A model generated the notes under the pieces. That model saw only the letters and a list, made by a program, of their open reading frames with translations, did not search any database and had not been told where the DNA came from. From a virus (Duplodnaviria; Heunggongvirae; Uroviricota; Caudoviricetes), in IMG/VR virus record IMGVR_UViG_2537561977_000009, positions 1-10,315 of that record: 10,315 nucleotides of DNA; one strand, 5' to 3'. Both the position numbers and the translations under genes were made by a program. Of this stretch, positions 2,776 to 3,085 are shown piece by piece. Numbering within the stretch: the first letter of the stretch is position 1; every line of letters starts with the position of its first letter.

Positions 2776-2850
2776 TGGAGCGGGCAGCGGGAATCGAACC
2801 CGCATCATCAGCTTGGAAGGCTGAGGTAATAGCCATTATACGATGCCCGC
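2776..2850 (-). tRNA. tRNA-Gly (anticodon UCC)
   Basis: RNA-sense GCGGGCATCGTATAATGGCTATTACCTCAGCCTTCCAAGCTGATGATGCGGGTTCGATTCCCGCTGCCCGCTCCA. 7-bp acceptor stem, anticodon stem TCAGC/GCTGA with loop CTTCCAA, T-loop TTCGATT, encoded CCA. From memory it closely resembles host glyT. Confidence 0.85.
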
Positions 2851-2853
2851 ATA

Positions 2854-2929
2854 TGGTGCCGACTACCGGAATCGAACTGGTGACCTACTGATTACAAGTC
2901 AGTTGCTCTGCCTGCTGAGCTAAGTCGGC
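2854..2929 (-). tRNA. tRNA-Thr (anticodon UGU)
   Basis: RNA-sense GCCGACTTAGCTCAGCAGGCAGAGCAACTGACTTGTAATCAGTAGGTCACCAGTTCGATTCCGGTAGTCGGCACCA. Perfect 7-bp acceptor stem, anticodon stem ACTGA/TCAGT with loop CTTGTAA, T-loop TTCGATT, encoded CCA. Confidence 0.85.
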
Positions 2930-2931
2930 GC

Positions 2932-3007
2932 TGGCCCACCACCGAGGACTCGAACCTCGCACCGTCAACTTAGAAGGTTGATGCTCTATCCGGATGAGTA
3001 GTGGTGG
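2932..3007 (-). tRNA. tRNA-Arg (anticodon UCU)
   Basis: RNA-sense CCACCACTACTCATCCGGATAGAGCATCAACCTTCTAAGTTGACGGTGCGAGGTTCGAGTCCTCGGTGGTGGGCCA. 7-bp acceptor stem CCACCAC/GTGGTGG, short 3-bp D-stem, anticodon stem TCAAC/GTTGA with loop CTTCTAA, T-arm CGAGG-TTCGAGT-CCTCG, encoded CCA. Confidence 0.8.
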
Positions 3008-3008
3008 T

Positions 3009-3085
3009 TGGTGGCCCTTGCTGGACTTGAACCAGCGACCTGGCGATTATGAGTCGCTCGCTCTGACCAACTGAGCTAAAGGGCC
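3009..3085 (-). tRNA. tRNA with anticodon CAU, most likely tRNA-Ile2 (lysidine type, reads AUA)
   Basis: RNA-sense GGCCCTTTAGCTCAGTTGGTCAGAGCGAGCGACTCATAATCGCCAGGTCGCTGGTTCAAGTCCAGCAAGGGCCACCA. Acceptor stem GGCCCTT/AAGGGCC, anticodon loop CTCATAA, T-arm the same as I recall for E. coli ileX. Anticodon alone cannot exclude tRNA-Met. Confidence 0.75.

Follow-up and report, generated by a model that had tools for sequence, protein, structure and literature searches.

A mosaic four-tRNA cassette with a predicted promoter and a structured trailer RNA between Q and the lysis genes of a lambdoid prophage

We analyzed a cluster of four tRNA genes carried by a lambdoid prophage on a stretch of 10,315 nucleotides (nt) (IMG/VR record IMGVR_UViG_2537561977_000009, positions 1 to 10,315), the whole of which is called the window hereafter. 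Our favored explanation, to which we give a probability of about 0.7, is that the cluster is a self-contained tRNA cassette lying between the antiterminator gene Q with its tR'-type terminator and the phage-21-type lysis genes, and that its mosaic set of tRNAs raises the supply of minor isoacceptors. Such a cassette would be a phage "moron," a unit placed between phage genes and made independent of them by a promoter and a terminator of its own. In the order of transcription, the proposed unit would comprise a promoter with a GC-rich discriminator, the genes for tRNA-Ile2, tRNA-Arg, tRNA-Thr, and tRNA-Gly, a structured trailer of ~180 nt, and a terminator, which is degraded here. The core of an earlier note on this DNA, which saw in the cluster a phage tRNA set matched to phage codons and partly captured from the host, is supported by our analysis. 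Elements of this kind are well known, and annotations of the exact four-gene module already exist in databases; since similar cassettes are common and annotated in Escherichia coli, the finding is for the most part ordinary, the exception being an unnamed folded RNA. Three observations go beyond the known: a predicted promoter that is conserved, a trailer RNA that is structured, and, in relatives, an anticodon loop of the second gene that varies.

A mosaic of phage-lineage and host-derived tRNAs

Run on the whole window, ARAGORN found exactly four tRNA genes, all on the minus strand (3085..2776), and agreed with the earlier note on the tight packing of the four genes at 2776-3085 with spacers of 1 to 3 nt and on their anticodons CAU, UCU, UGU, and UCC (CAT, TCT, TGT, and TCC in its output). 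The spacers are 1, 2, and 3 nt long in order of transcription, and the CCA end is encoded by each of the four genes. The Rfam tRNA model scored the CAU, UCU, UGU, and UCC genes at 70.5, 41.6, 69.8, and 64.9 bits, respectively, with E-values from 3e-15 to 3e-7; because of its low score, the UCU gene was filtered from the whole-window Rfam run and was recovered only by a short-range scan. As judged from sequence identities, the cluster is a mosaic in which two tRNAs of old phage lineage are joined by two recent copies of host genes.

The first gene (CAU; 3009..3085, minus strand) is a homologue of ileZ, the first gene of the ileZ-argN-argO arrays of the Shiga toxin (Stx) phages 933W and Nil2. 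It shares 74 of 77 positions with ileZ of Nil2 and 69 of 77 with ileX of E. coli K-12 but only 54 of 78 with the elongator gene metT. Its acceptor stem, GGCCCUU/AAGGGCC, carries the pairs C4-G69 and C5-G68, as in ileX, which are determinants for TilS, and a gene identical to it has been labeled tRNA-Ile by the Prokaryotic Genome Annotation Pipeline (PGAP). The ileX-like body, the two pairs, and the distance from metT bear out the Ile2 type proposed in the earlier note; the tRNA would decode AUA, its anticodon C34 presumably being converted to lysidine.

The last two genes match those of the host. The tRNA-Thr gene (UGU; 2854..2929, minus strand) is identical to K-12 thrU at 74 of 76 positions, both differences falling in the D-loop, and the tRNA-Gly gene (UCC; 2776..2850, minus strand) is identical to K-12 glyT over its entire length (75/75), in line with the near identity and the host capture that the earlier note had suggested. 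A commoner allele of the phage tRNA-Thr, found in S51-type relatives, is even identical to thrU throughout (76/76), as is the tRNA-Gly of these relatives to glyT (75/75). The host genes thrU and glyT have tyrU and spacers of 8 nt and 116 nt between them, whereas the phage copies are 3 nt apart and tyrU is missing; the pair thus seems to have been trimmed to gene-exact boundaries, which would make the cassette a clean example of how phage tRNA arrays are assembled. A signature of capture in the host flanks was considered and rejected: the flanks of the two copies are not host-like beyond 1 to 2 nt, and only the 3-nt junction TAT, which could equal T plus AT of the host spacers, is compatible with the host spacer ends, too short a match to count as evidence.

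Several relatives carry altered glyT copies. In FDAARGOS_943 (L003, 3337-3408), the anticodon UCC has become UAC, the gene is annotated as tRNA-Val, and one base of the 3' acceptor strand is lost, a further sign of decay or of anticodon switching in resident prophages. In HK639 (L009, 2337-2490), a tRNA-Asn(GUU) gene precedes a decayed remnant resembling glyT, after which the structured RNA begins at once, and E. coli KC-Dl-1 (L010, 2847-3000) has the Ile2 gene followed by an apparent argN::glyT hybrid remnant.

The second gene (UCU; 2932..3007, minus strand) is closest to argN, with which it shares 63 of 77 positions (64 of 77 once the missing G10 described below is restored), compared with 46 to 47 of 77 for argO and 58 of 79 for the host gene argU. 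It differs from argN by its anticodon, UCU instead of UCG, by a G73 discriminator, and by a perfectly paired T-stem. Its anticodon loop, CUUCUAA, is identical to that of argU, and A20 (D-loop AUCCGGAUA), C35, U36, and G73 match the host argU as well; A20, C35, U36, and a purine at position 73 are the identity elements of arginyl-tRNA synthetase. Taken together, the gene is best read as a recoded tRNA of the argN lineage, and not as argO or a copy of the host argU.

The earlier note had remarked on an unusual 3-bp D-stem in this tRNA. The stem is indeed of 3 bp, where the canonical one has 4 bp with G10-C25, but it is not a design feature. The window reads CUA-CUC...GAGC at the place where the 99.6%-identical prophages of CFSAN029787 and FDAARGOS_944 read CUA-GCUC...GAGC, so that exactly G10 is missing. 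A 50-nt query centered on the deletion, which seeds a match only where the deletion is present, matched none of 5,426 complete E. coli genomes, and the deletion was not found among the other 69 sequences recovered for this second slot of the array (slot 2). The loss is thus private to the window, which points to damage or to a sequencing or assembly error, and the Arg gene of the window is probably either impaired or mis-sequenced; the intact UCU allele (L003) scores 56.4 bits with the Rfam model, against 41.6 bits for the window copy. Over a 7-kb stretch shared with CFSAN029787 (98.7% identity), there are five insertion-deletion events, in every one of which it is the window that has the deletion; four fall within homopolymer runs, and G10 is the sole one outside such a run.

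In relatives, the argN-lineage slot 2 shows a highly variable anticodon loop on a body that is otherwise nearly constant. The anticodon is UCG in Stx phages, UCU in arrays of the window type, and, most commonly, UUU with C33 and U73, annotated as "Lys." Further variants have anticodon loops of 5 to 6 nt with six different sequences, some of which ARAGORN calls Phe, "Stop," or undetermined (e.g., L004, 3095-3171; also L016, L026, L042, L048, L105, and L127). The genes of this lineage score low as tRNAs (43 to 56 bits). This switching within one tRNA lineage, from UCG to UCU, UUU, and noncanonical loops, could reflect either relaxed constraint or diversifying selection.

The layout of a predicted transcription unit

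The genes around the cluster agree with its placement, in the earlier note, between a tR'-like terminator and the lysis genes on the late-gene strand. Upstream lies the antiterminator gene Q (3285..3701, minus strand, as the longest open reading frame [ORF], with a TTG start; PF06530, E = 5.8e-54), whose homologue in CFSAN029787 is annotated as "antiterminator Q family protein," with a RefSeq homologue annotated as 126 amino acids long. It is followed by an intrinsic terminator of tR' type (3172..3198, minus strand), AAACCCGCC-UCCG-GGCGGGUUU followed by UUUUAU; a simple terminator scan did not report this hairpin, since the extension of its stem consumed the U-run, and we relied instead on the sequence and its fold. 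Downstream of the cluster, the lysis cassette opens with the class II (phage 21 type) holin gene S (2269..2484, minus strand; PF04971, E = 1.1e-35), after which come an ORF of 209 amino acids, then the lysozyme and Rz genes, in an S/R/Rz cassette of the phage 21 type.

Between tR' and the first tRNA gene, a consensus scan and sequence conservation point to a sigma-70-type promoter (3095..3123, minus strand), made of TTGCAG (3123..3118), a 17-nt spacer, and TATTAT (3100..3095), with a GC-rich stretch of 9 nt leading to the 5' end of tRNA-Ile2. We compared 28 distinct upstream regions of the Ile2 gene, drawn from different lineages and among them that of the Stx2 phage Nil2; in 24 of these, the register of the pattern TTG-N20-TAnnnT is constant, while the spacer and the flanks vary, and in some lineages the -35 hexamer directly adjoins an upstream terminator. 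We infer that the cassette has its own sigma-70-type promoter. The cluster had been described as an element of the late operon, which fits its position and strand; given this conserved promoter-like motif between tR' and the first tRNA, the description tells only part of the story.

At the other end, a degraded intrinsic terminator (2550..2569, minus strand) reads GCCCGC-UUUC-GCG followed by U7, with about 3 bp left. The terminator of relatives is sound at the aligned place, for example GCCCGC-UUUU-GCGGGC-UUUU, and in HK639 it reads CCUCGC-UUCG-GCGAGG-U6 and is annotated as "terminator"; the lineage of the window has thus seen its erosion from GCGGGC to GCGUUU. In a predicted fold of this region (2485-2600, minus strand), the segment just 5' of the eroded terminator pairs with the Shine-Dalgarno region of S. 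Set against the definition of a moron, the promoter is present as a conserved motif, and the terminator is good in relatives and reduced to ~3 bp plus U7 in the window. The promoter together with the terminator that follows the trailer RNA in relatives gives the layout of a self-contained unit, and not only that of a segment of the late transcript.

We propose that the array would be transcribed from its own promoter and, during lytic growth, additionally by polymerase that passes tR' after modification by Q. The action of RNase P, together with trimming at the 3' ends, would then cut the transcript into single tRNAs, which, once aminoacylated, would raise the supply of four single- or low-copy minor isoacceptors. 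The supplied tRNAs, which might benefit the phage, would read AUA, AGA/AGG, ACA/ACG, and GGA/GGG, the codons that are over-represented in the phage genes. Moreover, the conserved promoter suggests that the tRNAs may be expressed in lysogens, in which case they could help pathogenic E. coli to translate acquired genes rich in AUA and AGA.

Codon usage in phage genes

Codons were counted in the prophage of CFSAN029787 (31 late coding sequences with 8,326 codons and 22 early coding sequences with 3,538 codons) and in a small host sample of 43 coding sequences (16,934 codons), and enrichment was expressed from the fraction of each codon within its amino acid family, as a late-versus-host odds ratio. 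All four A-ending cognate codons are enriched, as was to be expected if the tRNA set is of use to the phage: AUA makes up 0.121 of its family in late genes, 0.166 in early genes, and 0.062 in the host (odds ratio, 2.1), AGA 0.082, 0.118, and 0.018 (4.9), ACA 0.192, 0.344, and 0.128 (1.6), and GGA 0.167, 0.273, and 0.100 (1.8). The enrichment of these four codons is thus stronger in early than in late genes. Since tRNAs with U34 are expected to read the G-ending partner codons too, AGG, ACG, and GGG were considered as well, and their late-versus-host odds ratios are 5.4, 2.1, and 2.1. When 59 codons are ordered by enrichment, the seven cognate ones take places 1, 2, 6, 7, 8, 12, and 14 (Mann-Whitney p = 8e-6). 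The remaining A-ending codons compared (CAA, GAA, AAA, UUA, CUA, GUA, CCA, and CGA) are depleted or flat in late genes, and in the host sample ACA (6.6 per 1,000) and GGA (7.8 per 1,000) are minor but not rare codons. The functional reading thus withstands the codon-usage check named in the earlier note, but the property that unites the enriched codons is to be cognate to these four tRNAs, and not to end in A.

A structured trailer RNA between the tRNAs and the holin gene

The interval from tRNA-Gly to S is 291 nt long (2485-2775) and folds into three strong hairpins, with a minimum free energy of -88.4 kcal/mol (z = -3.7). Hairpin 1 (2724..2769, minus strand) has an 11-bp outer stem, a GGG/CCC tip, and an invariant internal loop of GAUGA opposite GA; hairpin 2 (2645..2716, minus strand) has a 14-bp outer stem around an inner hairpin with the invariant loop AAAUUGCUG; and hairpin 3 (2592..2646, minus strand) holds a near-invariant G/U-rich segment, GGGUGGUUUGUUGG (2603-2616). 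The earlier note had seen here ~290 bp of noncoding DNA with two inverted repeats. The length and the lack of a cargo gene stand, but there are three hairpins, and they belong to a conserved structured RNA.

The structure is supported by covariation. Among 18 diverse sequences of hairpin 1, 94.4% of the alignment cells are paired, compared with 41 to 50% when the partners are slid, and 4 pairs are changed on both sides, with 14 double-change cells, a result matched by none of 500 shuffles. For hairpins 2 and 3 (21 sequences), 96.5% of the cells are paired, compared with 32 to 50% with slid partners, and 10 pairs are changed on both sides, with 35 double-change cells, again matched by 0 of 500 shuffles. 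In hairpin 2, five of the pairs with compensatory changes lie in helix 1 (alignment A4, 21 sequences), and in hairpin 3, three adjacent pairs show such changes in 6 to 8 of the 21 sequences each. Frequent G.U pairs indicate that the structure exists on the late-gene strand only. The three hairpins are kept in relatives as distant as HK639 (~75% identical) and Fels-1; they lie, for instance, at 2488-2700 in L009, at 2998-3200 in L010, and at about 2000-2760 in L137. In some other contigs, glyT adjoins hairpin 2 and hairpin 1 is missing.

A covariance model built on the RNA (R1) has a single match in the window (2585-2722, which encloses hairpin 2; 133.7 bits) and none in Nil2, DLP12, the PasA/PasC loci of E2348/69, or the copies of STnc100, and the 291-nt interval has no match in Rfam 15 at E <= 1. 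Of 5,426 complete E. coli genomes, 530 (about 10%) carry the same interval, none of them with an annotation for it, and it also occurs in the phages PhiR47_1, vB_EcoS-689R5, vB_EcoM-606R7, and phi467. Such a distribution contradicts the idea that a cargo gene was lost between the tRNAs and S in this prophage. We found no description of the RNA in the literature, though one may exist.

Other identities of the interval were considered and rejected. A 59-codon GTG ORF (2481-2660, minus strand), overlapping the start of S, has AGG for a start codon in the commoner allele, and divergent relatives differ in it by insertions and deletions that are not multiples of three and by compensatory stem changes, so that the frame is not coding; apart from it, the stretch from the tRNAs to S is free of ORFs and has no stx-type cargo. 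In the nmpC-essD interval of K-12 DLP12, where IpeX lies, only the ribosome-binding site and the start of S align. The small RNAs (sRNAs) PasA, PasC, and PasD2 of enteropathogenic E. coli E2348/69, taken at the coordinates of table S6 of PMC8550237, have no similarity to the spacer on either strand. STnc100 occurs in the Q-to-lysis intervals of relatives, but not in the window, and is unmatched by model R1.

In hairpin 1, the internal loop (2732-2757, minus strand), GC|GAU|GA|UGGG...CCCG|GA|GU, resembles the kink-turn consensus, in which a 3-nt bulge is followed by tandem G.A/A.G pairs between two helices, and its putative G.A positions are invariant or nearly so in the 18 sequences; by this resemblance, the loop fits a candidate kink-turn.

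Relatives have one to three copies of STnc100 itself between Q and the lysis genes, on one or the other side of the tRNAs (L137, 1439-1652, 1853-1975, and 2976-3194; L010, 2541-2743; L070, 6582-7118; L009, 2754-2959; L042, 2211-2417). Genes for small RNAs and tRNAs have a general dumping ground in this part of these phages.

We tentatively suggest that the 291-nt interval contains an undescribed but widespread structured RNA family of lambdoid phages, which processing would release as the 3' trailer of the tRNA cassette and which might act as a regulatory sRNA or shield the lysis and late mRNA as a structure at the 5' end. Our best guess as to function is either a tRNA-trailer sRNA or a structure protecting the 5' end of the lysis mRNA left after excision of tRNA-Gly. 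The trailer RNA is a concrete candidate for a new phage RNA family, whereas the tRNA part of our analysis is mainly tidy annotation: a mosaic origin, an "Arg" gene that is a recoded argN, and a damaged copy in the window.

Alternative explanations

The cluster might be nothing but an element of the late operon, its tRNAs being made only from the Q-antiterminated pR' transcript and boosting the translation of late genes in lytic growth. This would fit its place and orientation, with Q and a tR'-type terminator preceding it and S following on one strand, and also the enrichment of the cognate codons in late genes. Nevertheless, we hold it unlikely, given that TTGCAG-17-TATTAT lies between tR' and the first tRNA in a register conserved across differing surroundings, that a terminator after the trailer RNA in relatives completes the layout of an independent unit, and that early genes, which are translated before late transcription, are more strongly enriched in the four A-ending cognate codons. 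Less probable still is a decaying relic, in which the tRNAs would be passengers of illegitimate recombination that drift and contribute neither to the phage nor to the host. Against it, all genes but the Arg one are intact and match functional genes at or close to 100% identity, the module and its promoter hexamers are kept in hundreds of genomes and in isolated, sequenced phages, and the codon bias agrees with all four specificities. A relic would account for the loss of G10 from the Arg gene, for the frameshifted DnaB-type helicase and the IS1 insertion in the same window, for the relatives with a Gly-to-"Val" copy (with its acceptor deletion) and tRNA remnants, and for the low scores of the argN-lineage genes (43 to 56 bits). 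An improbable third possibility is counter-defense, the array serving to replenish or to decoy tRNAs hit by anticodon nucleases (colicins, contact-dependent inhibition toxins, and abortive-infection systems) and not to match codons. Resistance to anticodon nucleases is known for tRNAs of phage T5 and of mycobacteriophages, and the strikingly variable anticodon loop of slot 2 in relatives is what an arms race would be expected to leave. However, the Thr and Gly tRNAs, being identical or nearly so to those of the host, would be cut alike, the Arg gene of the window has the ordinary argU anticodon loop CUUCUAA, and no nuclease or defense gene is implicated by any result of our analysis.

The self-contained cassette that we favor is itself faced with several contrary points. 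Copies decay in several lineages (G10 here, the UAC "Val" copy of FDAARGOS_943, and the glyT remnants of HK639 and KC-Dl-1), which shows that selection on individual tRNA genes is weak in resident prophages. The own promoter is predicted from the conservation of a motif, and the terminator is weak here, oddly so beside a constitutive promoter just upstream of lysis genes. Moreover, enrichment of such codons is general in horizontally acquired DNA and is stronger in early genes, and hence the codon bias does not prove selection for the tRNAs; the codon data also come from a small host sample and from a near-identical relative instead of the late genes of the window.

State of the prophage and other features of the window

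The gene for a DnaB-type replicative helicase is split at about 5028-5045 into ORFs for the N-domain and the C-domain (4944-5618 and 4207-5028, minus strand), owing to a one-base deletion near 5040, in an A-run, relative to CFSAN029787. An IS1 element begins at 9845-10315 (plus strand; InsA, PF03811 and PF12759). With its frameshifted helicase and its IS1, the prophage is probably defective, although the helicase deletion could alternatively be a homopolymer assembly error. The window diverges from the CFSAN029787 prophage from about 7620 onward. Side by side at 8402-8489 and 8514-8590 (minus strand) are Rfam matches to the C4 antisense RNA (80.7 bits) and to isrK (60.2 bits). Because they coincide with the 5' portion of an ORF of the Ash/Rha family (7796-8644), the early region may contain an antirepressor control module of the P1/P7 kind. 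In the lysis cassette, the 209-amino-acid ORF between the holin and lysozyme genes (1636-2265, minus strand) has no Pfam domain and matches phrog_1085, of unknown function; relatives have a YdfR/DUF1327 gene in its slot.

Comparison with known systems

Among the closest systems are prophages and phages that carry the module itself. The RefSeq prophages of CFSAN029787 and FDAARGOS_944 have the same four genes, and PhiR47_1, vB_EcoS-689R5, and vB_EcoM-606R7 have the Lys(UUU) version; such relatives match the window at 95 to 99.6% identity from the tRNAs through the spacer to the start of S, and PGAP annotates their genes as tRNA-Ile, Arg (or Lys), Thr, and Gly, whereas the match to phi467 starts only at tRNA-Thr. 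A search with the loop motif of the spacer recovered 120 viral contigs, in which the commonest array upstream is Ile2-"Lys"(UUU)-Thr-Gly (at least 54 contigs), the Ile2-Arg(UCU)-Thr-Gly array of the window occurs in 7, and many other variants are found. Compared with these relatives, the window alone is without G10 in its Arg gene, and most of them carry UUU and C33 in slot 2.

The earlier note had pointed out that Stx phages carry Ile and Arg tRNAs just upstream of their toxin genes, and the record of the Stx2 phage Nil2 (AJ413274) shows a homologous slot, tR'-Ile-Arg-Arg-stx2A, downstream of Q and tR' on the late strand. There, the first gene is homologous to that of the window (74/77), the second is homologous in its body (64/77), and the same promoter-like hexamers lie upstream. 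Compared with the ileZ-argN-argO arrays, the second gene of the window is UCU instead of UCG, argO is absent, and two host-derived tRNAs take its place; and where Stx phages have stx or nanS cargo, the window has a structured RNA before S. The host operon thrU-tyrU-glyT-thrT-tufB is the source of the last two tRNAs, of which the phage copy lacks tyrU, thrT, and the host spacers. The lambdoid phages SfI, Sf6, ST64T, PS3, and phage 21 have tRNA-Asn/Thr(UGU) genes downstream of Q together with a bias for ACA (PMC3636060), and thus share with the window the location, a Thr(UGU) gene, and the ACA bias. Their partner tRNAs differ, the window having no Asn gene; HK639 has an Asn gene and a glyT remnant.

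As for the trailer RNA, it lies in the same Q-to-lysis interval as the late-region sRNAs STnc100, PasD/EcOnc13, PasA/PasC, and IpeX but has neither sequence nor covariance-model similarity to STnc100, the Pas RNAs, or IpeX. Its position immediately after the last tRNA, and the terminator that closes it in relatives, are shared with tRNA 3' trailer sRNAs such as 3'ETS-leuZ, to which it is likewise dissimilar.

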